A stretch of DNA of 12,831 bases from positions 1-12,831 of the forward strand of contig JAWCFL010000046.1 in assembly GCA_038858525.1 (NCBI GenBank), given 5' to 3'. Made by a program: the position numbers and the translations under genes. Positions within the stretch are counted from its first letter, which is position 1. Each line of letters begins with the position of its first letter. The notes beneath the pieces were generated by a model. The model ran no database searches. It had not been told where the DNA came from and was given only the letters and a program-made list of their open reading frames with translations. This document shows, piece after piece, positions 1-12,280 of the stretch. Source of the DNA: Candidatus Jordarchaeales archaeon (lineage in GTDB: Archaea; Asgardarchaeota; Jordiarchaeia; Jordiarchaeales; Freyrarchaeaceae).

Positions 1-1
1 T

Positions 2-616
2 CCCGCCTTCTCCTGTTTTCCTGATGCGGACGTTTGGACGCTGCCTGTTCAGGTAAATTTTTTGTTTCTCGAACTCCTTTAGCATGACGGAAACTTGGAA
101 AGTAGGGTCCAAGCTCAAATCGACAACTAAGGCGACCACGTCGGCATTCCTGATCAGCGAAAAAATTCTTGGGCCATTAACGCTTTCAGCGCACCCGTCG
201 AAAATGGGAGGCACTTCTACAATTTGTATCATTGCCCCGCCAAAGTTGAGGATTCCAACCTCGGGGGACGTGGTTGTGAAGGGGTAAGCGCCAACTTTAG
301 CGTCTGCACCCGTAAGGCGGTTCAGAAGGAGGCTTTTCCCACTGTTCGTCAACCCTACAAGAACCACTTGGCCACTGCCCTCTTTCTTAATGTTGAAGGA
401 GGGAGCGCTTCTAGCCCTGCGAGCCTTCTCTCTTTCGACTTCCTCTCTAAGCTTGGCAAGGCGCTTTTTAAGTTGACGCTCAAGCTTCTCGGTGCCCTTA
501 TGCTTGCTCATTTTCGCGAGCAACTCTTCTATAGCTTGAATTTGCTCTTCCTTCGTCTTCGCTTCTTCCAGCTTTTTAAGAGCCACTTGGGCTTCTGCAC
601 CAAGGTTCACGGGCAC
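2..616 (-). CDS. drg: DRG/Rbg-like OBG-family GTPase, N-terminal 205 codons (runs off the left edge)
   Basis: Hand-translated from GTG at 616, with SD GGAGG at 624-628: MPVNLGAEAQVALKKLEEAKTKEEQIQAIEELLAKMSKHKGTEKLERQLKKRLAKLREE...QVVLVGLTNSGKSLLLNRLTGADAKVGAYPFTTTSPEVG...QIVEVPPIFDG...LIRNADVV...NVRIRKTGEGG. It has the DRG-type N-terminal helix (HKGTEKL..LK.RLAKLR), G1 GxxNxGKS and G2 YPFTT. No stop before the window edge, so it is missing from the ORF track. Confidence 0.9.
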   Translation of the reverse strand, partial: MPVNLGAEAQVALKKLEEAKTKEEQIQAIEELLAKMSKHKGTEKLERQLKKRLAKLREEVEREKARRARSAPSFNIKKEGSGQVVLVGLTNSGKSLLLNRLTGADAKVGAYPFTTTSPEVGILNFGGAMIQIVEVPPIFDGCAESVNGPRIFSLIRNADVVALVVDLSLDPTFQVSVMLKEFEKQKIYLNRQRPNVRIRKTGEGG

Positions 617-654
617 CGGAGACCCTCCAACTGTAGCTTCATGTTTAAGGTAAT

Positions 655-671
655 GAAAAGAGAAAGAAAAA
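655..671 (-). terminator. Pyrimidine/oligo-T tract after prmC (possible archaeal terminator)
   Basis: The minus strand reads TTTTTCTTTCTCTTTTC, starting 6 nt after the prmC stop codon. Confidence 0.4.
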
Positions 672-676
672 CATGA

Positions 677-1276
677 TCAATGAGGAGAGAAAGTTACGAG
701 GCATATTTCCTCAAAGAAGAAACGTTTTCTCGCATTTATTACGTATTTGAAGCCGAGAGCGGATAAATGCTTTAGTAATTTTTTGGGTTTCATGAGGGAG
801 GAGAAGATCACTTGATACCTTTTTTTAGGTGATTGTAAATGATTTTTAACCATATCAATGAAGCGCCCGACAACTTTCCGGCCGGTTTTTCCGCCGCTCC
901 ATGCTAGTCCCCAGTTTCCCGGGTCTTCAGTAGGGAGGTAAGGCGGATTAAATACCACAAGGTCAAAGGGGGAAATGGTTTTGAGGAAAGTTAAGAGGTC
1001 ACCTATTATTATGTCCACTTTGTCTTCGTAACCGTTCCTTTTAGCATTTATGAGCGTGTTTTTTGCAGCTAAAGGCGATATATCGATTGCGACGACGCGC
1101 CTAGCTCCTTTAGCAATGGCGAAAAGCGATATGATGCCTGTGCCGGAGCCGACGTCCAACACAACGTCACCTGGCTTGACAGCTAAGTGGTCTGCCAAAA
1201 GGAGGGAATCATCAGCGGGATCATAGACGCCGTCAAAGACAAGAAGAGAGAAATTATCTATTTTTCGTTCTCTCAT
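677..1276 (-). CDS. prmC: HemK2/Mtq2-family SAM-dependent methyltransferase (release factor glutamine methyltransferase)
   Basis: 199 aa with VYDPADDSLLL, motif I VLDVGSGTG, motif IV FNPPY and WSGGKTGR. It lies downstream of ksgA, the usual archaeal context. Confidence 0.9.
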   Translation of the reverse strand: MRERKIDNFSLLVFDGVYDPADDSLLLADHLAVKPGDVVLDVGSGTGIISLFAIAKGARRVVAIDISPLAAKNTLINAKRNGYEDKVDIIIGDLLTFLKTISPFDLVVFNPPYLPTEDPGNWGLAWSGGKTGRKVVGRFIDMVKNHLQSPKKRYQVIFSSLMKPKKLLKHLSALGFKYVINARKRFFFEEICLVTFSPH

Positions 1277-2084
1277 GGAGGACCCCCTTTACCCAGAAAG
1301 CTAGTTTCTTCACTTCGTCAGGTGTGAGGTGCCGAGGGCGTTTTTCAGACAAAGGCGATTCCTTCACAAGTTGTAAGGCGAGGCTTTTTGGGATGCCGAA
1401 GCGCTCGAACAGAAGAAGAAGACCATGCTTAACTTTTTTGTTCGGCGCCATGAACAAGCAACGGGAAATCTCTGAGAAAAATGGTTCGTCGACCTCAGCT
1501 GGCTTAGGCGTCAGAAGAACTATCGCTGAGTCAACTTTGGGGGAAGGATAGAAATTTTTTCTGTTAACGACTTCTAAGATTATAGTGTTCAGATAAGTTT
1601 GAGCGCTTACCGAGAGACGACCATAATCTTTAGATCCTGGCGACGCTACTAAACGAAGAGCGAACTCTAACTGAAGGGTCAACACTGCTTTTTCGAAGCT
1701 TAACCGGGCTATTTTAAATATTAAAGGAGCTGAAATGGAGTATGGTGGGTTTGAGACCATCTTGTTGAAGGCAGGCGGATCTATTTTGAGGAAGTCGGCG
1801 TTGATCACCTCGACGTTGTTAAAAACGGATAGATATTCTTGTAGAAAAAGAGCGAGCCTCTTGTCAGCCTCTACAGCGTAAACCCGTTTTGCACGTTCGG
1901 CTAAGGCGTATGTCAGCCCTCCCAACCCTGCCCCAACTTCTAACACGACGTCTTTCCCTGATACTTCGGCGTAGTCCACCTCACGCCTTATTATTTGAGG
2001 GTTTATGAGGAAGTTTTGCCCTAGGCGCCTACTGGGATTTACACCGTATTTTTTCAGTATAATTCTTATTTCTTGACTATCCAT
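1254..2084 (-). CDS. rsmA: 16S rRNA adenine dimethyltransferase KsgA/Dim1
   Basis: LGQNFL, VLEVGAGLGGLT, SNPPY, YGRLSV and PSPKVDSAIV motifs. Start moved from the track's 2180 to ATG 2084 (MDSQEIR, 276 aa), which leaves an 8-nt overlap with the DUF655 stop instead of a 104-nt overlap. Confidence 0.95.
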   Translation of the reverse strand: MDSQEIRIILKKYGVNPSRRLGQNFLINPQIIRREVDYAEVSGKDVVLEVGAGLGGLTYALAERAKRVYAVEADKRLALFLQEYLSVFNNVEVINADFLKIDPPAFNKMVSNPPYSISAPLIFKIARLSFEKAVLTLQLEFALRLVASPGSKDYGRLSVSAQTYLNTIILEVVNRKNFYPSPKVDSAIVLLTPKPAEVDEPFFSEISRCLFMAPNKKVKHGLLLLFERFGIPKSLALQLVKESPLSEKRPRHLTPDEVKKLAFWVKGVLHERTKNR

Positions 2085-2739
2085 GTGAAGGCCCCTTAAC
2101 TTTGGAGGGTCTTTTATAGTGGAAGTCTTCAGGGGGTTCAGGTGATGGAGGTCTAGTGAAGAGACGATACTTGTCTTCACCCTTAAGCTCGGAGATTATC
2201 CTGCTAACTATTGCTTTTTTAGGTTCATGCAGTTTTCCTCGCTCTGCTAGGTCATTAAAGTCCTTGAATGGTTCCTTCTCCCGTTCTTCTAGGAGATGCC
2301 ACATTGTTTTGTCGCCAACGCCCGGTATTAGCTTAAGTTGATGCAGACGAGTGGATATGGGTTGAGCGTTGTTGAAGAAGTCGACGAAGCGTTTCTCGTT
2401 CTTTTCAACTATTTTCTCGACAACTATTGGAAGCTCGCTCTTAGCAACAGAGGTTAAATCGTCATATGTAATGCGTCTTTCAACATGGTCTATTTTTCTA
2501 CGCTCACCCTTTCCTATGTATATGCGTTCATGAGGAGAAAATGAGACGCCTTTTTTAGGTGACAGCTCAAGCAATGTAAAAAATTCCTCCCCAACAACTT
2601 GAACGATAGGCTTCCGCTGATATACAGGTCTCCTATCATCAACACGCCCCTGTGGTAAATAATCTAACACGTAAACGTGATCTTCAAATCGTTTCTTAGC
2701 ATAAGTTTTATCTACACCCATTTTTCTCCGCTCCCCCAC
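2077..2739 (-). CDS. DUF655-family putative nucleic-acid-binding protein with a helix-hairpin-helix motif
   Basis: YVLDYLPQG, VGEEFFTLLEL, IYIGKGERRKI, HhH motif LKLIPGVGDKTM. Sits between rpo4 and ksgA. GTG start with upstream GTGAGGG; ATG 2721 is an alternative start. Confidence 0.88.
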   Translation of the reverse strand: MGERRKMGVDKTYAKKRFEDHVYVLDYLPQGRVDDRRPVYQRKPIVQVVGEEFFTLLELSPKKGVSFSPHERIYIGKGERRKIDHVERRITYDDLTSVAKSELPIVVEKIVEKNEKRFVDFFNNAQPISTRLHQLKLIPGVGDKTMWHLLEEREKEPFKDFNDLAERGKLHEPKKAIVSRIISELKGEDKYRLFTRPPSPEPPEDFHYKRPSKVKGPSHG

Positions 2740-2778
2740 CCCTCACAAAAAAGGACTCATCAGTAAACGTCTTTTACG

Positions 2779-3123
2779 TTATTCAGGCTTTTCAGAAAAT
2801 TCGCGGATGAGATTCACCATACCCTCCAGCTCTTCTTTCCTAAAGGATTTAGTTTCATAAGCTAGAAAAACCTTTAGCTCATCAACCGTTTGAGGTAATA
2901 CGTTGACTATTTGCGTTGCAGTCAACTCTTTTAACTCGTACTTTTCAACCAATAAATTAACAAGCTCCCTCGACTTACTGGCGGATAGCTTCGAAAACAG
3001 CCTTACATAATCCAGTGTGGCTTTCTGAGCATGGCTTAACCTTCCCTCTTTTTCCCTTTCCTCTAATAACTCCTTAACTTCAGACAAAGTAAGACATTTT
3101 TCCGATAAAACTTTGGGAGGCAA
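2779..3123 (-). CDS. rpo4: RNA polymerase subunit Rpo4 (RpoF, Rpb4 homolog)
   Basis: LTLSEVKELL, QKATLDYVRLFSKL, ATQIVNVLPQTVDELK. TTG start with SD GGAGGT at 3132-3137. Follows rpl21e. Confidence 0.92.
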   Translation of the reverse strand: MPPKVLSEKCLTLSEVKELLEEREKEGRLSHAQKATLDYVRLFSKLSASKSRELVNLLVEKYELKELTATQIVNVLPQTVDELKVFLAYETKSFRKEELEGMVNLIREFSEKPE

Positions 3124-3138
3124 GTGAAATAACCTCCT

Positions 3139-3438
3139 TCATGCAGTTTGTAATGGGCGAAGATGTTCAGGCCTAACTATCACTTTCTTAATCTTGCTAC
3201 CTACCTTCAACGCCACAACATATGCTCTGCCCCTCTTCTCTATTATTTTACCGTTTTTCCCATGAAAACGCTTATGAGGCTGCCCCTTATGTATGCTCGG
3301 GTCTATCAAAATGACGACTTGCTCTCCAACTTTGTAATCGTAAAGCAGCTTGTCAGGTGAAGGAACCCCTCTCATTCTGGGGGGCTTTTTCAGCAATTTC
3401 CTAGTCCGACTCCTATAACCCTTAGACTTTCGAACCAA
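3139..3438 (-). CDS. rpl21e: 50S ribosomal protein L21e (eL21)
   Basis: SKGYRSRTRKLL, DPSIHKGQPHKRFHGKNG, VRPEHL. TTG start with SD GGAGGT at 3447-3452. Confidence 0.97.
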   Translation of the reverse strand: MVRKSKGYRSRTRKLLKKPPRMRGVPSPDKLLYDYKVGEQVVILIDPSIHKGQPHKRFHGKNGKIIEKRGRAYVVALKVGSKIKKVIVRPEHLRPLQTA

Positions 3439-3542
3439 CTCCCTAAACCTCCATAAGGTAAAGTATCCAACACCATTAAGAATGTGAAAGTAATAGGATG
3501 ACTCTATGATTCAACTTTTGGAATAGTGGTATCTTTGACAGG

Positions 3543-3555
3543 TATATAAATTTTT
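3543..3555 (-). promoter_or_regulatory. BRE/TATA promoter of the rpl21e operon
   Basis: The minus strand reads AAAAA-TTTATATA about 105 nt upstream of rpl21e, implying a start site near 3520 and a leader of about 80 nt. Confidence 0.55.
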
Positions 3556-4009
3556 AGAGACCAAAATTTTAGATGTTATGTTCATTTAATTAGTTGAGCT
3601 TCGCAAGGGTGGCTGTTCAACATAGATTCTCACGCATAGTTGCGTTACCTCCTTTAAAGCAAGATCTAAAAGAGGGCACCAGCACTCTTCGTTACACTCC
3701 ACCGCTTCCCGCATCTTTATAATTTTCTTAGTGGACTATTTGACTTCTAAGAGAAAAAGATCATTTATTTGGCTTCTGCATATTTCTATTGCTAAGTTCA
3801 CTAGTTAAGGGATCCATTTTCCGAGAAACACCATACAGCGCTTCTTCACAGAAAACGTTTCTCAGAATATTTCCTCTTAATAAAAGGTAAACTCTCTGAT
3901 TTCTTATCGATTTTTAAGCAGGCGATTTTATATTCCCTTCCTTATGGCTTATGGATGACTGATGAAGGAGGTACGGATTTTAACAGCCAATACTGTCCCT
4001 GCGGTAAAA

Positions 4010-4025
4010 AGCCTTAAAAAAGGCT
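4010..4025 (-). terminator. Hairpin followed by a T run downstream of nmd3
   Basis: The minus strand reads AGCCTT-TTTT-AAGGCT-TTTT, about 50 nt after the nmd3 stop. Confidence 0.45.
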
Positions 4026-4077
4026 GACAGAGGAAAAGGAATTCATGAGTTTCACGATGGCTTCCTGAAAGCAGGTT

Positions 4078-4833
4078 TCACGGCTTGGTTTCGCCGCCGG
4101 CTTTGATGGGGGCGGCGCTTTCAGGTGGAAGACGAATTGAAATTGAGAGAATTCCTTTCTTTCCGTCATTTACTCCTTTTAGCTTAAATGTTTCTTTGAG
4201 TTCGGCGTTGAATATTTCCTTTATTCTTTGAGCAATGCTTCGCGCAAAGCTTTGTGATGAAAGTTTAACGTCAAACCATGTTTTTCCATCTTCCACTTTG
4301 TGAGAGACGCCTTTTAGACGTGCTTCCTTCTCTATAATGGAGAGGATTTTTTTGCGTAGCTGAGCATTAATTTTCCCATCAAAACTTCTAAACTGCAAAA
4401 CAGCTTCTTTAGGTTCCTTCCTCATTTTTACGCAGGAGGGACAATTTACGAATTTGAAATCGAAAAAAACGGTTACATTTTCTTTTAAGGTCAACTTAGG
4501 CTCTTTATAGTACACGGCTAACACGAGACGGGTTTTTCCCTCTTTAAGGTGAAATTGCTCGTGCTGAAATTTAAATGAGACAGTACCTTTAAACTCAGGC
4601 GGAAGACTGATTTCGATGCCTTTCTCAGTGATCTCTTCAATGATTTCGCTTAGCAGCGTAGAACTTGGCTCGAACCATTTTCCCTTAACTCTGTAACTTA
4701 GGCAGGAAGGGCAGAAAGATGCTCTAACGTTAAAGGCGCTACGGCTCATCTCTCGCTTAAAGTAGCAAGGCAAACACACGTTTTCGATCAGCATAATTTC
4801 TGTTTTACCACAGAAAGCGCAAAATTTAACCAT
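4078..4833 (-). CDS. nmd3: NMD3-family large-subunit biogenesis factor, short form (251 aa)
   Basis: Zn-binding pairs CAFC...CLPC and CPSC...CPSC, the KW motif, EAVLQFR, and a terminal SIRLP. Adjacent to DUF424 and aIF2-beta. SD GGTGA. Confidence 0.85.
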   Translation of the reverse strand: MVKFCAFCGKTEIMLIENVCLPCYFKREMSRSAFNVRASFCPSCLSYRVKGKWFEPSSTLLSEIIEEITEKGIEISLPPEFKGTVSFKFQHEQFHLKEGKTRLVLAVYYKEPKLTLKENVTVFFDFKFVNCPSCVKMRKEPKEAVLQFRSFDGKINAQLRKKILSIIEKEARLKGVSHKVEDGKTWFDVKLSSQSFARSIAQRIKEIFNAELKETFKLKGVNDGKKGILSISIRLPPESAAPIKAGGETKP

Positions 4834-4858
4834 TAATTTTCACCAGGGTAGGATGTTT

Positions 4859-5155
4859 TTACAGGATCACTTTTTGTGCATGCGCCACTCCCTGAATTCT
4901 TATCACGCCTTCAGGATGAATCAAGCCTGCCTCTATGGCTTTTGATATTATCATGTTGCCCGCCAAGTTTACTATTGTAGCTTGCTCTATGGCTTTTAGC
5001 GCATCCTCAACCTGTACCAGTCTTCCACCATAGAAGGATTCTTTCACCTCAAGTTTAAGGTTTCCCTCTCGAAAGGTTTTTCCAATTATGTCTTCGTCAC
5101 AAACTGCGACCAAAATGTCGCGCCCCACGTACTTCTCTGAGAGGTATACTTTCAT
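4859..5155 (-). CDS. DUF424-family protein
   Basis: DILVAVCDEDIIGKTFREG.LKLEVKESFYGG, ATIVNLAGN, IQGVAHAQ. Located between eif2b and nmd3. Confidence 0.88.
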   Translation of the reverse strand: MKVYLSEKYVGRDILVAVCDEDIIGKTFREGNLKLEVKESFYGGRLVQVEDALKAIEQATIVNLAGNMIISKAIEAGLIHPEGVIRIQGVAHAQKVIL

Positions 5156-5168
5156 TGCGTTTACCTTC

Positions 5169-5582
5169 TTACAAATGCTTCACAGGAGAGCGGGCCCCAC
5201 ACGCCTCGCATATAAGGTAGTGAATTCGCTTTTCCTTTTTTATCTTCGTATCTGGGCGGCCACACTCATGGCATATGACGTAACTTTGCACGTAACGCTC
5301 GATCAACTTATTGAAAACCGAGTCACTGAAAGTTCCTTGAAAAACCGCCCTAGTCCCTTCAATCGTTCCTGCAGTTGCTAGTTCCCTGGCCAAGAACCTC
5401 AAAAGGTGCTGAGGATCCCTGTTAAGACGATCAACTATTTCTTTGAAGTTTCTGAGAGTCGTCCTGTTACCCTCAATGAATACTGAGGCATGTGGAACAT
5501 CGAAACGAGACCACTCTGAAATCCCCCTTGGAAGACGACTTATGGCCCTGTCAAGAAGGGCTTCATATTCTGTTTCATCCAA
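5169..5582 (-). CDS. eif2b: Translation initiation factor aIF-2 beta subunit
   Basis: YEALLDRA, EGNRTTLRNF, LNRDPQHL, ELATAG, and the C-terminal Zn ribbon CHECGRPDT...CEACGA. TTG start with SD GAGGG. Confidence 0.96.
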   Translation of the reverse strand: MDETEYEALLDRAISRLPRGISEWSRFDVPHASVFIEGNRTTLRNFKEIVDRLNRDPQHLLRFLARELATAGTIEGTRAVFQGTFSDSVFNKLIERYVQSYVICHECGRPDTKIKKEKRIHYLICEACGARSPVKHL

Positions 5583-5585
5583 AAC

Positions 5586-6224
5586 TTATCCCTCACTATT
5601 TTCGTCATCCAAACTACCTAACCGTTTATAAGAGCCATTACTGGTCTCGTATATTATGCCTTCTCTTAGTAGCATGTCAAGTTCTCGCTCTAACTCGTCA
5701 TCGGGCACATTTAAAAACTTCTCTAATGTCTCCTTAGTGACTCCATCACCCATGTCTAAGCTATCTATGAGTTTCAGAATGCTTCTATGAAGAGAAACCT
5801 TCCGTGTAACTCGTTCTCCAATGCTGAGAGAAGAGAAAAGGTATAGTTCAAGTTCTCTAACCAACTCCCAGTTTGGGTCTTCAACTCTGATTACCAGTTC
5901 CGGAACCAAATACACTTCATCTCTATAAGAACGTATTAGACCCACAACGTCAACTACTCCACCGATCTTAATGTCACTTGTTGATGTTTTTCCTCCCCAA
6001 ACCTTAACTCTAATTGTTCCGGTGCCATCGTCAAGGGTGAAATTCATGTAGTCACTTAGCTCGCTTCTAAATACATCAACGATAGTCCCCATCACTCTCA
6101 CCCTGCTAGCTCGAATGCCTGACTTAGTTATGAGGATAAATTTACCTTGCTCGTCTGAGCGTTCAATGGAGCCTTCAATAACTTCAGATATGCATAGCTT
6201 GTAAGCGGGTTCCCAAAGAGACAT
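5586..6224 (-). CDS. rpa2: Replication protein A RPA32/Rpa2-like subunit (OB fold plus C-terminal winged helix)
   Basis: OB fold (RVRVMGTIVD, FTLDDGTGTIRVKVW, VVGLIRSY, EDPNWE), a linker, then a winged-helix-like C-terminus (ILKLIDSLD.GDGV...ELDMLLREGIIYETSNGSYKRL). Confidence 0.8.
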   Translation of the reverse strand: MSLWEPAYKLCISEVIEGSIERSDEQGKFILITKSGIRASRVRVMGTIVDVFRSELSDYMNFTLDDGTGTIRVKVWGGKTSTSDIKIGGVVDVVGLIRSYRDEVYLVPELVIRVEDPNWELVRELELYLFSSLSIGERVTRKVSLHRSILKLIDSLDMGDGVTKETLEKFLNVPDDELERELDMLLREGIIYETSNGSYKRLGSLDDENSEG

Positions 6225-6242: not shown

Positions 6243-7112
6243 CTAAAGCTTAACCCCGTTCTTAACTTGGATCTCAACTCCATATATCTTCTCCGGGTTT
6301 TCCTTGCATATTTTCCAGAAGGCGGCTTCGCTTGCCCCCTTTAAAAGTAACCGTCTAATCGTTCTCGGAGTGCTTCTCGGGTCTAGAACGGCGCCAGGGC
6401 GCTTGGGGTCATCGATAAAGTCAGTTTCCATGAGGAAGCACGTGCCAGAAGACAAGGCTCTCGTAACGTTTTTTACCGTTGAAAGTACTGACGGAAAAAA
6501 TCCCCATTTGATAAGTGGCTCTATGTTGGGAGGCGCAAAGTGCTTTATTATGCGGTCAGGTTTTAACCCCACCTTTTTAGCTGCCTCCGAGATGGATGCG
6601 ATTTCTTTTTCGTTAAGATGGCCTGTATGTAACTGAACGGGGCATCCTGCATCCTTAGCCAATATTAAAGCGTACTCTAAAAGCTGATTTGATGCCTCAA
6701 GAATCTCTTTGCCTACAGGATAGTGTGGAAGGCCGACCTCCCCGATCGCCACCGCCCGCTGCTCGCTAACCCACATAGCTGCTCTTTCAAGACCCTTCTG
6801 GATCAGTTCGACGGCTTCGTTTAACGGAACACCCTTGCTGAGCATGAATGTTAGTTCCGCTGGGTGAACTCCCACTATGGCGAAGGCTTGTACTCCCAGT
6901 TCCGAAAGCTTTTCGATAGATGAAAAGGTGAGCGAGTAGCAACGTTCAAAGTCAAGTGGATTTTTAACTGATACATCGTAGCTCCAACTAGGTAAACTAA
7001 CAACGAACAAAGCTGTTCCACCACAGGACTTAAAGAGCTTTCCAACATACTCAGCACCCATGCCTTTAATAGGATTAATATGAATATGATTGTCGGTCGC
7101 CGGAACAAGCAT
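6243..7112 (-). CDS. tatD: TatD-related metal-dependent hydrolase (amidohydrolase fold)
   Basis: DNHIH, GVHPAE, AIGEVGLPHY, VQLHT, KHF, METDFIDDPKRPGAVL. ATG 7112 preferred over TTG 7121 because SD GAGGGT (7121-7126) sits 8 nt upstream of it. Confidence 0.85.
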   Translation of the reverse strand: MLVPATDNHIHINPIKGMGAEYVGKLFKSCGGTALFVVSLPSWSYDVSVKNPLDFERCYSLTFSSIEKLSELGVQAFAIVGVHPAELTFMLSKGVPLNEAVELIQKGLERAAMWVSEQRAVAIGEVGLPHYPVGKEILEASNQLLEYALILAKDAGCPVQLHTGHLNEKEIASISEAAKKVGLKPDRIIKHFAPPNIEPLIKWGFFPSVLSTVKNVTRALSSGTCFLMETDFIDDPKRPGAVLDPRSTPRTIRRLLLKGASEAAFWKICKENPEKIYGVEIQVKNGVKL

Positions 7113-7236
7113 AAAGATCAACCCTCAAGTTTCAACGTGCTCTCTGAAGAAATAAAAATATGGAGGACATTGAAATTCATGAAATAAGCCAAGAAAGGCT
7201 GCATATGAGACACGCGGTAGAGCAGCTGGTGGTAAA

Positions 7237-7563
7237 ATGGTTGTGGTGGTTTTCGTGACAGCGAAGGAAGATGATGCTGAGAAGATCGCCCTCGAAATCA
7301 TTAATAAGCGATTGGCTGCCTGCGTTAACATAGTGCCTAGTGTGGCTTCGGTCTACTGGTGGCAAGGAAAGATCGAGAGAGACAAGGAGAGTTTACTGAT
7401 AATTAAGTCTGACGAGAAGGTTTTGGAGAAACTTGTTGATGCCGTTAAAAAAACGCATAGCTACTCTTTGCCTGAAATAATAGCCATGAAGGTCGTTGGA
7501 GGATCAAAGGAATACATTAAATGGGTCGAGGAAACGCTATCGAACGAGAATGGTGACCGTTAA
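7237..7563 (+). CDS. cutA: CutA divalent-cation tolerance protein (PII-like fold)
   Basis: RLAACVNI, SVYWWQGKIE, HSYSLPEII. SD GGTGG. Confidence 0.95.
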   Translation: MVVVVFVTAKEDDAEKIALEIINKRLAACVNIVPSVASVYWWQGKIERDKESLLIIKSDEKVLEKLVDAVKKTHSYSLPEIIAMKVVGGSKEYIKWVEETLSNENGDR

Positions 7564-8274
7564 GTGGCAAAAAAGCCTGTTAGACATAGTGACAGGGTTG
7601 AAGTTATTTATTCAAGTGAAAGGTGGAGAATTTTAGTGGAACTTAGGCGTAAAGCGATGCAAGTAATTGATGCACTCAGGAGGCATGGATTAGACTCTTT
7701 TGTTCATGGCAGCGTCGCACGGGGGGACGTTACGAAGAATAGTGATATTGACATTGTGATACCGTACCAGGTAGCTTCGTTTAGAATTGAGACAGCCTTA
7801 AGAGAGATATTTCCAACGTTTATGGAGAAGCTTATTGTTCAAGCCACCCCTCAACACGCACCCAAAGCGTATATTCAGGTTGACGAAAAATTGACTGTTA
7901 CTTTTCCTCTAGCTAAGCTTAGTAGATTAGAGTATGAGTTCTACGGTTTTGGTGGAGTCGTGAGGTTTGACCAACTTGAAAGGGGGGAAAGGGTGCCAGG
8001 CGTTGATAAGAGACTTATGTTCATAGAGCCCACAGAAAGAGGACACTTTGAGAGCCAGGTTATAGGTAGAGAAAGCGTTGTCGCGAAGAAGTTAGGCGTG
8101 AGCATCGAGGCTGTCCAGCAAAGGATTAGAGTGTTAACGAGAAGGGATGAAGTAGGAAGAACAGGAGTATACCTTAAGAAGAGCTTGGAAAGCGATGAGA
8201 GCTTCGAAGATGTTTTGAAAAAAATAGCGGATCACGATCCAGTTGTAAGAGGCAGAATTAGGTGGAACACATGA
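7564..8274 (+). CDS. Pol-beta-superfamily nucleotidyltransferase (archaeal COG2413-like, 236 aa)
   Basis: Catalytic signature HGSVARGDVTKNSDIDI, plus EYEFYGFGG, RVPGVDKRL, GRTGVYLK. GTG start directly abuts the cutA TAA. SD GGTGA. Confidence 0.85.
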   Translation: MAKKPVRHSDRVEVIYSSERWRILVELRRKAMQVIDALRRHGLDSFVHGSVARGDVTKNSDIDIVIPYQVASFRIETALREIFPTFMEKLIVQATPQHAPKAYIQVDEKLTVTFPLAKLSRLEYEFYGFGGVVRFDQLERGERVPGVDKRLMFIEPTERGHFESQVIGRESVVAKKLGVSIEAVQQRIRVLTRRDEVGRTGVYLKKSLESDESFEDVLKKIADHDPVVRGRIRWNT

Positions 8275-9350
8275 AGCTACGTATACTTCAAGATAAGCGT
8301 TCTTGGGTTTTAGGAAAGTTGCCGGAGGGGTGCGAGTTCTGTGCGAGGGGATCGAAACTAGTGCTTTTCGTAACTGGAAAATGCGTTTTTCCTCGGGAGT
8401 GTTCATGGCTTTGCCCAATATCTAATGAGAGAAGAGGGAGAGACGTGATATATGCTAATGAAAGGCCAGTGACCAGAAACGAGGACGTTGTGGAGGAAGC
8501 CAAGTTAATTGACGCTGAGGGATCGGGAGTCACTGGGGGAGAGCCACTCTTAGTTTTAAGCCGCACTATAAGTTTCATTCAAACATTGAAGGAAAACTTT
8601 GGTGAAAAGCACCACGTTCACCTTTATACCTCTGGGAAAAACGTCACGGACGAAGCACTTAGTATGTTGATTGATGCGGGTCTTGATGAGCTTAGAATAC
8701 ATTTACCAACTTTTAACATACTTAAGATGGCGCTAGAATATCCCATTAAGGTGGGCGTAGAGGTCCCTGTTATTCCTGGAGCGGAAGACGCACTCAAAAA
8801 ATTGGCTGAAGAGCTGGATCAACTCGAAGTGGATTTTCTTAACTTGAACGAGCTGGAGTTCTCTGAAAGCAATGCAGAGGAATTAATAAAGAGAGGAATT
8901 AATCTTAGGACAGATAGTTTTGCTGCTGAGGGGAGCGAGGAAACAGCCAGTCGGCTTCTATATTGGGCTAAGGATTCGTTATCACTTAATATTCATTACT
9001 GTTCGGCTTCCTTTAAGGATGGGGTTCAGCTTAGAAATAGGTTTCTTAGAAGGGCGCTTAGAGTTGCCCAGCAGTATGAGATGGTAACAGAGGACGGGTT
9101 GCTCGTTAAGGGCGTAATACATGGCGTGCCACTCTCGGAGCTAGAGAAGCTGGCCACGTTCTTAATGAAAGAATTCAGAATTAAACCAGAGATGATGAGG
9201 ATTAATGTTGAAAAAGGTAGAATAGAGACTTCAGTTAAAATCGCGTGTAGGATTGCGAAGAAACTTAAGGAGAGGGGATTCGAGGTGGGTATACTGGAGG
9301 AGTACCCAACATATCCTCCAAGGTTGGAAGTGGAATACACTCCGCTCTAA
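8271..9350 (+). CDS. Radical SAM protein (COG2108-like, uncharacterized)
   Basis: GCEFC...KLVLFVTG.C, YANERPV, GVTGGEPL, HLYTSG, GLDELRIH, FLNLNELEFSE, HYCS..FKD.VQLRNR. Start set at ATG 8271, forming an ATGA overlap with the upstream TGA; SD AGGTGG. Confidence 0.85.
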   Translation: MKLRILQDKRSWVLGKLPEGCEFCARGSKLVLFVTGKCVFPRECSWLCPISNERRGRDVIYANERPVTRNEDVVEEAKLIDAEGSGVTGGEPLLVLSRTISFIQTLKENFGEKHHVHLYTSGKNVTDEALSMLIDAGLDELRIHLPTFNILKMALEYPIKVGVEVPVIPGAEDALKKLAEELDQLEVDFLNLNELEFSESNAEELIKRGINLRTDSFAAEGSEETASRLLYWAKDSLSLNIHYCSASFKDGVQLRNRFLRRALRVAQQYEMVTEDGLLVKGVIHGVPLSELEKLATFLMKEFRIKPEMMRINVEKGRIETSVKIACRIAKKLKERGFEVGILEEYPTYPPRLEVEYTPL

Positions 9351-10249
9351 ATACTGGCGCCCATTTCTTCTTTTTCTTGGAGTTCACGAAAAGCTTGTTT
9401 TGACGTTAGATCACTCAACGAGTCTTCCAGTAATTCGAGAATACGTTGTCTATAGTGAGGGGCAACTGCCACCATTCCATGAGCCTTTATGCCGAATATT
9501 TCACTAATTTTTTCGGGCGGGATGGCATTTGGAAGGTCTTGCTTGTTCGCTACTAAGATGATCTTTGTGGGATTCAGGAATTTCGAAATTTGTTGAAATA
9601 GCTCTCTTGCCTCGTATACACCTTTAGGCGTGGATTCGCATACGAATAGAATTATGTCAGCGTCCTTGGTGAGCTTTTCCCAAAAAGGCCTAAATTTCTC
9701 CTGTCCTCCTATGTCCCAGAAAATCAGTTTAACGTTAAAAACAGGCATCTCGTATTCCTTAATGTCGATCAACATTGTTGGGGTGTAGTTTCCCCCCACG
9801 TTTTCTCCCATAATTAGATTTAGGAGGGAGGTTTTGCCTACTCCATCCTTGCCTATTAGAGCGATTTTAACGTGAGATTTCATTATGTCATCTGCTATGG
9901 ACTCGAACCTCTTAAAAACAGATATATCTCCGTCCCATTTTTTTATTTCTTTTGAGAAAAGGCTTAGAAAGCTGTCCCTCAACATCTTCAGTTTCTTCTT
10001 TAAGAGCTCGTCTCTTTCATTTTTGTCAGCGCATATAATGAAGAGCAACTCGTCATATGACGAGTAAACGAACTTTATATTCCTCATAACCACAGATTCT
10101 ATTTCTTCTTCAGAATCAAAGGACTTTATGAAAGAGGCGAAGGCCGTTAAGAAACCCGAAATTATGCTTTCATCTATCCACTGTTTGTGGTATGATTTAT
10201 GGAATAAACAGATGCCGGAAGACGTAATGACGTAAATGTCCCATATCAA
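9347..10249 (-). CDS. Longin-like domain fused to an Arf-like small GTPase (300 aa)
   Basis: Residues ~1-123 have a longin-like pattern (IYVITSSGICLFHKSY...DESIISGFLTAFASF...IESVVM..IKFVY...LLFIICAD). The GTPase domain has G1 GKDGVGKT (133-140), G2 YTPT, G3 WDIGGQEKFR (178-187) and G4 NKQD (235-238). TTG start with SD GGAGG. Confidence 0.85.
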   Translation of the reverse strand: MIWDIYVITSSGICLFHKSYHKQWIDESIISGFLTAFASFIKSFDSEEEIESVVMRNIKFVYSSYDELLFIICADKNERDELLKKKLKMLRDSFLSLFSKEIKKWDGDISVFKRFESIADDIMKSHVKIALIGKDGVGKTSLLNLIMGENVGGNYTPTMLIDIKEYEMPVFNVKLIFWDIGGQEKFRPFWEKLTKDADIILFVCESTPKGVYEARELFQQISKFLNPTKIILVANKQDLPNAIPPEKISEIFGIKAHGMVAVAPHYRQRILELLEDSLSDLTSKQAFRELQEKEEMGASI

Positions 10250-10438
10250 TAAGGTTCCTCCAAGAACCGTAAACTTCTCACTCAGAAAGAAATTAATTTA
10301 CAATTTTCTTAAAAAGATTTTGAAAAAATAACAGAAATAGTAAGCAAGGCTTTCTTTAAGTGGCTCTAGCGTCGGCTAAGGAAAATCTTAAAAGTTTGAG
10401 GGAGCGAAGGTTCCCTCGTTGTGAAAGGAGGGTTTGTT

Positions 10439-10753
10439 TTGAAAATAATTGCGATTGGAGATAAGGATATGGTGCTTGGATTTAAACTGGCCGGCATCTC
10501 CTCTGCTTTAGAAGTTAATAACCCTGAGGAGGCAAAGGCGGCTTTAAAGGACGCTTTTCAGAGGCGTGACGTGGGAATAATATTGATTTCGGAAAGGCTA
10601 GCGGAGGAGTTAAGGCCTTTCATAAGCAAATTAGTTGAGGGAGCCGACTTACCGATCATTGTTGAGGTACCCGGCAAGGAGGGCACTAGAACTGGAGGAG
10701 ATGTTATTAAAGAACTTGTCAAGAGGGCAGTGGGTATAGAAATTAAAATTTAA
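10439..10753 (+). CDS. atpF: A/V-type ATP synthase subunit F
   Basis: MKIIAIGDKDMVLGFKLAGI, DVGIILISERLA, PIIVEVP, LVKRAVGI. Start set at TTG 10439 (104 aa), with SD GGAGGG at 10427-10432. Confidence 0.93.
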   Translation: MKIIAIGDKDMVLGFKLAGISSALEVNNPEEAKAALKDAFQRRDVGIILISERLAEELRPFISKLVEGADLPIIVEVPGKEGTRTGGDVIKELVKRAVGIEIKI

Positions 10754-10757
10754 AAAA

Positions 10758-11234
10758 TTAGATGTATCGGAGGATTTCATCAGAATTCATCAATTTACCA
10801 CAATACTCGCACCTAATTAGTAGTGGGGCTCGTTCTTCAACTCTGAAGCGTTGACTGACCGGCTCGCCACTATTCGTTATACAATTGGGATTAACACATT
10901 TGGGAAAACCTTCTATTACCTCAGGTAACTTAACTTTCTCCTTCTTTATTATTTTGTAGTCTCTCACAATGTTTATCGTTGCGCTAGGAGAAATCAACGC
11001 TATTTTGTCTACCTCTTGAGGATCAAGTTCTTTGCCTTCGATCTTAACGATGTCTTTTCTTCCAATTTTTTCGCTTGGAACATGCATTACTATGCTGACT
11101 ATGTTATCCTCCTTGCCGCAAATGCCGAGAATTTTTAAAACTTTTAGGGCCATACCGTTAGTTATGTGGTCGATGACAGTTCCATTCCGTATTTTTCTAA
11201 CTCTGAGTTCTCTCTCAAAATTTTCATCACTCAA
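10758..11234 (-). CDS. pyrI: Aspartate carbamoyltransferase regulatory chain
   Basis: IRNGTVIDHI, KIGRKDIVKIE, ATINIVRDY, and Zn ligands CVNPNCIT...CEYC. Confidence 0.97.
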   Translation of the reverse strand: MSDENFERELRVRKIRNGTVIDHITNGMALKVLKILGICGKEDNIVSIVMHVPSEKIGRKDIVKIEGKELDPQEVDKIALISPSATINIVRDYKIIKKEKVKLPEVIEGFPKCVNPNCITNSGEPVSQRFRVEERAPLLIRCEYCGKLMNSDEILRYI

Positions 11235-11306: not shown

Positions 11307-11356
11307 GTATCATTTTCCGCTAAATGGTTCAAGCAATATGTCAAGGAGGGGAATCG

Positions 11357-12280
11357 TTGACGAGCGGCATCCTAGGACTGAAAGACGTTGTTTCAATAAA
11401 GGACTTTTCTAGAAGGCAGATCGAGTGGCTCTACGAGGAAGCAGAAAAAATGGAGAACGTTTTTAGAAGGGGAAGCGACGTTCTGAGAGGCAAAATACTG
11501 GCAACATTATTTATGGAGCCTAGCACGCGCACGCGCCTCTCCTTCACGACAGCGATGTATAAGCTAGGAGGTCAGGTTATAGGTTTCGAAAGCGTGGAAG
11601 CCTCTTCAATAGCTAAAGGAGAAAACCTAAATGATACTGTCAAAACAGTTGAAAACTACTGTGACGCCATAGTGTTACGTCACTGGTTGGAGGGAGCAGC
11701 CAGATTTGCGTCCGAAATAGCGAACGTGCCCGTGATAAACGCGGGCTCAGGCACTGAGGAGCATCCTACTCAAGCTCTCCTAGACATATTCACAATAAAG
11801 CGTGAAGTGGGAACAGTTGATGGATTAAAGGTAGCTATAATGGGAGACCTCAAATATGGACGCACTGTTAAGTCATTAAGTTATGGGTTAGCTAATTTCG
11901 ACGTGGAAATTTATCTAGTGTCGCCTGAAAGCTTAAGGATGCCTGAAGACGTCATTCGCTACTTAGAAAAAAAGAAAATGCACGTAGAGGAGTATAACAC
12001 GCTAGACGAAATAATAAGGAAGATCGATGTATTATATGTGACACGACTTCAGAAGGAGAGGTTTCCGGACGCAGCTGAATACGAAAAACTACGAGGGAGT
12101 TATAAAGTAGATGTTAAAACGCTGAGCGAGGCAAAGCCGAACATGATCCTTCTTCATCCATTGCCGAGGCTAGACGAAGTAGACCCGGAGGTGGATAAAA
12201 CGCCGCATGCAAAATACTTTAAACAGCCGTTTTATGGTGTGCTGGTGAGGATGGCTATTCTTAAAGCCCTTCTCTCTTGA
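11357..12280 (+). CDS. pyrB: Aspartate carbamoyltransferase catalytic chain
   Basis: FMEPSTRTRLSF, EHPTQALLD, GDLKYGRTVKSL, YVTRLQKER, HPLP. Start set at TTG 11357 (307 aa) behind SD GGAGGGG at 11345-11351. Confidence 0.98.
   Translation: MTSGILGLKDVVSIKDFSRRQIEWLYEEAEKMENVFRRGSDVLRGKILATLFMEPSTRTRLSFTTAMYKLGGQVIGFESVEASSIAKGENLNDTVKTVENYCDAIVLRHWLEGAARFASEIANVPVINAGSGTEEHPTQALLDIFTIKREVGTVDGLKVAIMGDLKYGRTVKSLSYGLANFDVEIYLVSPESLRMPEDVIRYLEKKKMHVEEYNTLDEIIRKIDVLYVTRLQKERFPDAAEYEKLRGSYKVDVKTLSEAKPNMILLHPLPRLDEVDPEVDKTPHAKYFKQPFYGVLVRMAILKALLS

Follow-up and report, generated by a model that had tools for sequence, protein, structure and literature searches.

Do the three genes that occupy positions 7,237 to 9,350 of a Jordarchaeales contig belong together and, if so, on what do their products act? 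The stretch of DNA analyzed (hereafter the window) is the complete contig C46 (12.8 kb), part of a genome of 2.09 Mb (G000, 92.7% complete), whose closest protein relatives carry the label of the Jordarchaeales, an Asgard group. The genes encode, in order, a CutA protein, a nucleotidyltransferase (NTase) of the Pol-beta superfamily, and a radical S-adenosylmethionine enzyme (rSAM). A preliminary description, made from the sequence only, had read them as an operon for a two-step pathway, in which an RNA, a cofactor, or a protein is activated by nucleotidylation and then altered by radical chemistry. Our analysis partly supports this interpretation: cutA, NTase, and rSAM very probably form a genuine and ancient functional module, and the reading that we favor, at a probability of roughly 0.4, is a tRNA- or RNA-directed activity that is associated with 2-thiolation and regulated by CutA. 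The most informative context, absent from the preliminary description, is provided by the conserved flanks, a tRNA 2-thiolase of the NcsA/TtuA type and the ribosome-rescue factor Pelota.

Conservation of the gene set

The open reading frame (ORF) of cutA extends from an ATG at 7237 to a TAA at 7561-7563 (ORF listing and raw sequence). The GTG of the NTase gene follows immediately at 7564 with no gap, and at 8271-8274 an ATGA joins the NTase TGA (8272-8274) to the overlapping ATG of the rSAM gene (8271-8273). These junctions, and the divergence of the genes from tatD, agree base for base with the preliminary description. A purine-rich motif of the GGTG type lies 3-7 nt before the starts of cutA, NTase, and rSAM in the raw sequence. 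The start codons of the two enzymes are credible because their homologs begin at the same residues (MAKKPV for the NTase in alignment A1, and MKLR... for the rSAM in alignment A2). Judged from this layout the three genes are one operon, in which translational coupling is likely because the stop and start codons abut or overlap.

Among the 151 Asgard genomes of at least 80% completeness, 121 contain the NTase and 132 contain the rSAM; both are present in 110, only the NTase in 11, only the rSAM in 22, and neither in 8. According to a manual reading of two genome tables, the two genes are adjacent in approximately 102 of the 110 Asgard genomes that carry both. The Bathyarchaeia set consists of 61 genomes, of which 50 have the NTase and two have the rSAM, and both of these rSAM copies adjoin the NTase (G180 and G159). 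The neighborhood statistics proposed in the preliminary description thus come out as strong linkage across archaea, although kin genomes are non-independent samples, and the counts therefore overstate the statistical weight. The two families were found in Asgard archaea, Bathyarchaeia, Methanomethylicia, Nezhaarchaeia, Hadarchaeia, Methanopyrus, and Pyrodictiaceae, with thousands of sequences each and approximately 45-55% identity across phyla. In a Methanopyrus-like locus from the single metagenome scan on which the euryarchaeal context rests, NTase and rSAM are 2.8 kb apart.

The geometry of the pair varies. The order is NTase-rSAM in 10 + 23 + 12 loci and rSAM-NTase in 3 + 2, and the two genes are convergent in 2 + 1, from which it appears that the adjacency has been kept through rearrangement instead of being a simply inherited order. 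Recurrence of this adjacency in numerous lineages and several geometries places the arrangement far beyond chance.

The link to cutA, also pointed out in the preliminary description, is conserved as well. On the same strand and directly upstream of the NTase, cutA occurs at 7 of the 80 genome loci, at 10 of the 37 Asgard loci, and at 15 of the 80 metagenome loci (median gap 17-42 nt); in 3 + 2 further loci it is convergent and downstream of the NTase. The upstream position is found in several Asgard families and in Bathyarchaeia, including Bathyarchaeia without the rSAM, and there is no cutA nearby in the Asgard family that has only the rSAM (f5). We therefore infer that cutA is tied to the NTase rather than to the rSAM. 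Such a tie fits a PII-like regulator, or possibly a substrate, of a Pol-beta transferase.

Clustering of all NTase neighbors recovered a typical block, which consists of an ncsA/ttuA-like thiolase gene (-), an M50 peptidase gene (-), cutA, NTase, and rSAM (+), and pelota (-). This block recurs in many Asgard families, Bathyarchaeia, Methanomethylicia/Culexmicrobium, and metagenomic relatives. The NcsA/TtuA-like protein (NF047749, E = 6e-67; PP-loop plus TtuA_LIM_N) is encoded divergently at 63 of the 80 genome loci and 43 of the 80 metagenome loci, and four Asgard loci, from families f7, f24, and f16, have its gene in co-directional orientation, 17-81 nt upstream of the NTase. Downstream, pelota (TIGR00111, E = 1e-78) is present in 50 of 80 genome and 37 of 80 metagenome loci. 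In family f5, which has lost the NTase, the rSAM alone sits between thiolase and pelota, and in family f18, which has no rSAM, a YchF/Obg-like GTPase with a TGS domain adjoins the NTase. At one f18 locus (L115:4760-6696) this GTPase gene comes directly after the NTase on the same strand, with a 3-nt gap, and at another (L116:5992-7914) it flanks the NTase convergently.

In the genome of the window, M50 and ncsA are together on contig C5, and cutA, NTase, and rSAM lie elsewhere, beside tatD; the same separation is present in the related genomes G006 and G066. As M50-ncsA was left behind while the other three genes are found together at another place, the three genes appear to have moved as one cassette.

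Do these patterns require a common pathway? Independent housekeeping genes may also be joined by co-expression or inherited order, and, as such co-location would allow, each of the genes is found without the other two in certain complete genomes, Asgard family f20 has both enzyme genes on different contigs, and no NTase-rSAM fusion was found in the 150 best representatives of the NTase family (all of at most 296 residues; longer forms were not searched separately). Nevertheless, we regard co-location without a shared pathway as unlikely: the adjacency persists across phyla that lack a conserved general gene order, it survives inversions and order changes, both of the rare rSAM copies in Bathyarchaeia adjoin the NTase, and in the Jord lineage the cassette was relocated as a unit.

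Sequence and structure of the three proteins

CutA proteins are found in all domains of life, and their role is still debated. The protein encoded in the window matches PF03091 over residues 4-99 with 119.4 bits (cut-off 22.4), and so belongs to the CutA1 family; its score with the NCBIfam equivalog NF041095 is 103.9 bits, under the cut-off of 120. The gene is single copy in the genome. Bacterial CutA forms a trimeric PII-like assembly that binds a ligand (pteridine or Cu), and CutA proteins were recently shown to bind pteridines (PMC12685090).

The sole Pfam match of the NTase is PF01909 (NTP_transf_2; E = 9e-8, 32.8 bits, cut-off 21), which covers residues 34-79 of 236. Its active site is intact, as the preliminary description had it: HGS at residues 48-50 and D61xD63 agree with the hG[GS] and [DE]x[DE] signature of the Pol-beta superfamily, and both HGSVARGD and the two aspartates are invariant in the family alignments. 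The conserved positions E/D76, E123/E125, and E163 are candidates for the third catalytic carboxylate (alignments A1 and A3). The AlphaFold2 model (predicted local distance difference test, pLDDT, 90.6) consists of a Pol-beta core, a beta-hairpin, two helices, a flexible RRDxxGRTG loop (pLDDT 57 at residues 191-200), and a helical tail. From the two helices and the loop arise matches to winged helix-turn-helix (HTH) domains, which are weak and recurrent (HTH_24, AsnC-type, and NirDL-like in 4-7 of 16 NTase members), and the same part matches AF2008 (1sfx) with an E-value of 0.03. Among the best structural matches of the core (Foldseek, VIA-align) are Cid1, TUT4/7, GLD-2, and CCA-adding enzymes, these RNA-specific transferases being statistically tied with Pol lambda/X and CdnE. 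The family is tight: a homolog search returned approximately 3000 sequences of roughly 55% identity from several archaeal phyla, and the 353 representatives (50% identity) at E < 1e-3 are almost all 220-245 residues long. It is also basic, with a median isoelectric point (pI) of 9.35.

A Pol-beta core of this kind could also belong to an antitoxin of the minimal nucleotidyltransferase (MNT) type or to a defense nucleotidyltransferase, and the NTase indeed shows weak similarity to the MntA model (20 bits, where 60 is the cut-off) and to the minimal NTase 1wot. Such an identity is extremely improbable. The preliminary description was right that the protein is not a minimal MNT and that no HEPN gene accompanies it, as none of the window ORFs scanned encodes a HEPN domain; moreover, the NTase is twice the size of an MNT, single copy, approximately 55% identical across phyla, and set in a fixed housekeeping neighborhood. 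With its HEPN partner missing and its size and conservation pattern wrong, an MNT-HEPN toxin-antitoxin system was rejected.

The rSAM matches PF04055 with 39.2 bits (cut-off 29.5), and its family-specific part corresponds to PF26257, named DUF8061 in Pfam 38.1 (precomputed annotation). It has the three-cysteine motif by which the radical SAM superfamily binds its SAM-cleaving [4Fe-4S] cluster, canonically CX3CX2C and here spaced CX5CX3C. We rejected this spacing as a family hallmark: it results from a 2+1-residue insertion that is limited to the Jord/Frey lineage plus a small number of other members, and most members have CX3CX2C, the family norm, in the same columns. A GGEP motif at residues 89-92 is invariant in alignment A2, in agreement with the GGE(P) and partial TIM barrel of the superfamily. 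H242 and C244 are invariant as well and could, together with C21 and C24, be ligands of a second metal or cluster site. The AlphaFold2 model (pLDDT 93.7) shows a standard radical SAM barrel with an extra C-terminal alpha/beta domain, which is hardly covered in fold searches. The rSAM is the single family member in the genome, the other match being a weak, unrelated rSAM (E = 6.6e-4), and the family is basic (median pI 9.22). As a stand-in for Elp3 it was rejected, since it has no KAT domain and a genuine Elp3 (TIGR01211, 716 bits) is encoded elsewhere in the genome.

The top fold matches of the rSAM (Foldseek, VIA-align) are viperin (Z 16.8), NifB (15.9), and PFL-AE (15.4), with GDGT-MAS, QueE, and MoaA also listed, and its top profile-to-PDB match is MoaA (E = 1.3e-3). 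Such relatives raise the prospect of a nucleotide- or pterin-derived small-molecule pathway, in which the rSAM would rearrange a substrate of the nucleoside triphosphate or pterin type (as viperin, MoaA, and QueE do), the NTase would make or use its nucleotidylated form, and CutA would bind the product or a precursor. The many invariant basic and histidine residues in the rSAM barrel and the recurrence of cutA as an operon partner agree with this, and the pteridine binding of CutA proteins keeps it in play (PMC12685090). However, the rSAM matches are all generic core similarity, cutA tracks the NTase and not the rSAM and is missing from most loci, and the NTase has a winged HTH of the nucleic-acid type. 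Furthermore, clustering of the NTase neighbors brought up no recurrent cofactor-biosynthesis gene besides the cassette itself, the recurring neighbors being tRNA and translation genes. A small-molecule pathway is thus rather unlikely, in our estimation.

PFL-AE, for its part, suggests that the target may be a protein: the NTase would nucleotidylate CutA or another protein, as GlnD does PII, and the rSAM would act on a protein in the manner of glycyl-radical activases. PII with GlnD or GlnE is an established pairing of a PII protein with a Pol-beta-type transferase, and many lineages have a gene for a PII-like protein immediately upstream of the gene for a Pol-beta NTase. Yet cutA is near the NTase in only about 32 of 197 loci, and CutA has no T-loop. 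The genome encodes two glycyl-radical enzymes of the PFL2/glycerol-dehydratase type, on contigs C15 (L214:5648-9155) and C7 (L215:5072-8381), and each has its own adjacent TIGR02494 activase (335 and 347 bits), which weakens this explanation; the rSAM itself matches neither TIGR02494 nor TIGR02493 and was rejected as a glycyl-radical activase. Protein modification is accordingly slightly less probable than co-location.

Proposed function and other contents of the window

No function has been assigned to the NTase or rSAM family in curated models, solved structures, or the searchable literature, as the preliminary description had surmised. NCBIfam has no specific model for either enzyme (the DUF8061 label being what Pfam offers), sequence and fold searches gave no close relative in the PDB, literature searches for COG2108, COG2413, and DUF8061 found nothing relevant, and the pair is not mentioned in a review of archaeal 'dark matter' (PMC6393860) or in a paper on release-factor evolution (PMC6514570).

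We favor a tRNA- or RNA-directed role because of the tRNA and translation neighbors, the basic nature of both families, the winged HTH, and the resemblance of the NTase core to RNA-transferase folds. In this proposal, NTase and rSAM would share one RNA substrate, in all likelihood a tRNA, and their process would be linked to 2-thiolation. RNA binding would fall to the basic winged-HTH part of the NTase, and the enzyme would then transfer a nucleotide that activates a position or, alternatively, tags a 3' end; the rSAM would add a separable step of radical chemistry on the same target. CutA, as a PII-like trimer, may then sense a ligand and regulate the NTase, in the way that PII regulates the Pol-beta-type GlnE. 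More specifically, the module may carry out a novel archaeal tRNA/RNA modification or 3'-end tagging that operates alongside NcsA/TtuA 2-thiolation and ribosome rescue and is gated by CutA, a suggestion that we put forward tentatively and with more doubt than the general one.

Several findings weigh against an RNA-directed role. The winged HTH of the NTase could equally be a binder of DNA or protein. The matches of the NTase to RNA transferases are weak (Foldseek E ~1e-3, Z at most 6.2) and involve the generic core only, the rSAM of the window is itself acidic (pI 5.6 and 6.8 for its two parts), and the pteridine binding of CutA points towards small-molecule chemistry (PMC12685090). In addition, the window itself contains neither ncsA nor pelota, and where these do flank the module they could represent inherited synteny of housekeeping genes.

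The phyletic distribution also counts against the two enzymes depending on each other. In profile searches, the closed genomes G012 and G023 (Asgard family f13) have the NTase without the rSAM, and the reverse is true of two further closed genomes, G026 and G069 of Asgard family f5. The NTase-only lineages comprise most Bathyarchaeia and Asgard families f11, f13, and f18, and f5 is the rSAM-only one. The pair is not obligate, and neither enzyme needs the other, so the obligate two-step pathway of the preliminary description is not supported. Given that either enzyme can be found by itself in some lineages, strict interdependence of the two steps would not be possible, and NTase and rSAM probably serve a common target in separable steps and not in an obligate sequence of activation followed by radical chemistry.

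If the more specific proposal is correct, CutA, two orphan enzyme families, and an unassigned archaeal RNA chemistry would gain a function together. The fixed position beside a tRNA thiolase and Pelota makes a testable proposal for missing archaeal RNA or translation biology. As CutA occurs in all domains of life and its role is debated, a recurrent operon partner provides a new way to approach it. Should the genes be housekeeping genes that share no more than their location, all that results is a tidy annotation.

The features of the locus are collected in Table 1. The presumed promoter region of the cassette is the intergenic region between cutA and tatD. The longin-Arf gene, whose 3' end overlaps that of the rSAM gene by 4 nt, adjoins the cassette also in G006 and G066; a fusion of longin and an Arf-like GTPase is typical of Asgard archaea.

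Table 1. Coordinates of the cutA-NTase-rSAM genes, their motifs, and adjoining features in the window.
Feature	Position	Strand	Evidence or remark
cutA, 108-aa CutA1/PII-like protein	7237..7563	+	PF03091, E = 6e-35
NTase, 236 aa, Pol-beta superfamily	7564..8274	+	Core at residues ~12-130; family-specific C-terminal half
NTase catalytic signature	7705..7752	+	HGSVARGD (48-55), SDIDIV with D61 and D63; invariant in A1 and A3
NTase winged-HTH-like element	8065..8184	+	Residues ~168-207; holds the invariant RRDxxGRTG loop (193-201)
rSAM, 359 aa, archaeal COG2108-like/DUF8061 family	8271..9350	+	PF04055, E = 1e-9
rSAM cluster motif C38-x5-C44-x3-C48	8382..8414	+	All three Cys invariant (A2)
rSAM N-terminal CxxC, C21 and C24	8331..8342	+	Invariant columns in A2
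rSAM C-terminal alpha/beta domain	9063..9347	+	Residues ~265-359; beta-alpha-beta-beta-alpha-beta-beta (model)
Intergenic region cutA/tatD, 115 bp, divergent	7122..7236	.	A/T-rich TATA-like stretch at ~7150-7161 (sequence)
tatD-family hydrolase, divergent neighbor, lineage-specific context	6243..7121	-	PF01026, E = 1.5e-31; elsewhere adjoins the cassette only in same-genus G006
Longin + Arf-like small GTPase, convergent with rSAM	9347..10249	-	Arf, E = 3.9e-22; Fuz_longin_1, E = 4.4e-9

Translation and information-processing genes dominate the rest of the contig. A minus-strand run at 1-6224 encodes a GTPase, a methyltransferase, KsgA/Dim1, a DUF655 protein, Rpo4, L21e, NMD3, a DUF424 protein, aIF2-beta, and an RPA-like OB-fold protein. 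Within it, the approximately 640 bp between L21e and NMD3 (3439-4077) contain no ORF of at least 60 residues and no tRNA or Rfam match (E up to 1), and could represent an RNA lacking annotation or a regulatory region; Rfam and tRNA scans of the whole window likewise gave no matches. On the other side of the cassette, pyrI on the minus strand (10758-11234) and pyrB on the plus strand (11324-12280) point away from each other and do not form the pyrBI operon that is their usual arrangement, and a lone gene for V-type ATPase subunit F (10421-10753) is located beside them.

Comparison with known systems

The NTase shares with MNT/MntA (PF01909) the Pol-beta core and the hG[GS]x9-13[DE]x[DE] signature. 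It differs in its length (236 vs. ~100-130 residues), in the absence of a HEPN partner, in being single copy and vertically conserved, and in the addition of the beta-hairpin, the winged-HTH-like element, the invariant RRDxxGRTG loop, and the helical tail. Cid1, TUT4/TUT7, GLD-2, and class I CCA-adding enzymes are its best core structure matches, and the basic nature of the family and its tRNA and mRNA-surveillance neighbors are in line with them. In contrast to these enzymes, the NTase lacks both a PAP-associated domain and the head, neck, and tail domains of CCA enzymes; the weak alignment is confined to the core, and its C-terminal half is winged-HTH-like instead.

With viperin, PFL-AE, MoaA, and NifB the rSAM has in common the partial TIM-barrel core, the three-cysteine motif, and GGEP (Z 15-17). 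At approximately 14-19% identity, however, it differs from all of them by its additional invariant CxxC and HxC, by its DUF8061 domain, and, in the Jord lineage, by the CX5CX3C spacing, and none of the curated models for activases, MoaA, or viperin matches it.

The closest parallel to the pairing of cutA with the NTase is that of PII with GlnD or GlnE, as in both cases a gene for a trimer of the PII fold is associated with one for a Pol-beta-superfamily transferase. Unlike PII, CutA has neither the T-loop nor sequence similarity to PII, and HD, ACT, and second NTase domains are absent from the NTase; a coupling of the two proteins is suggested by gene order.

Finally, the known tRNA 2-thiouridine synthetase systems of TtuA/NcsA (Ncs6/Ctu1) use ubiquitin-like sulfur carriers and E1-like enzymes, and to our knowledge neither an NTase nor an rSAM has been described as their partner. 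Whereas the thiolase of genome G000 is encoded on another contig, a TtuA/NcsA protein is the conserved neighbor of the module across Asgard archaea, Bathyarchaeia, Methanomethylicia, and related groups, and in some Asgard families it is encoded in the same operon.

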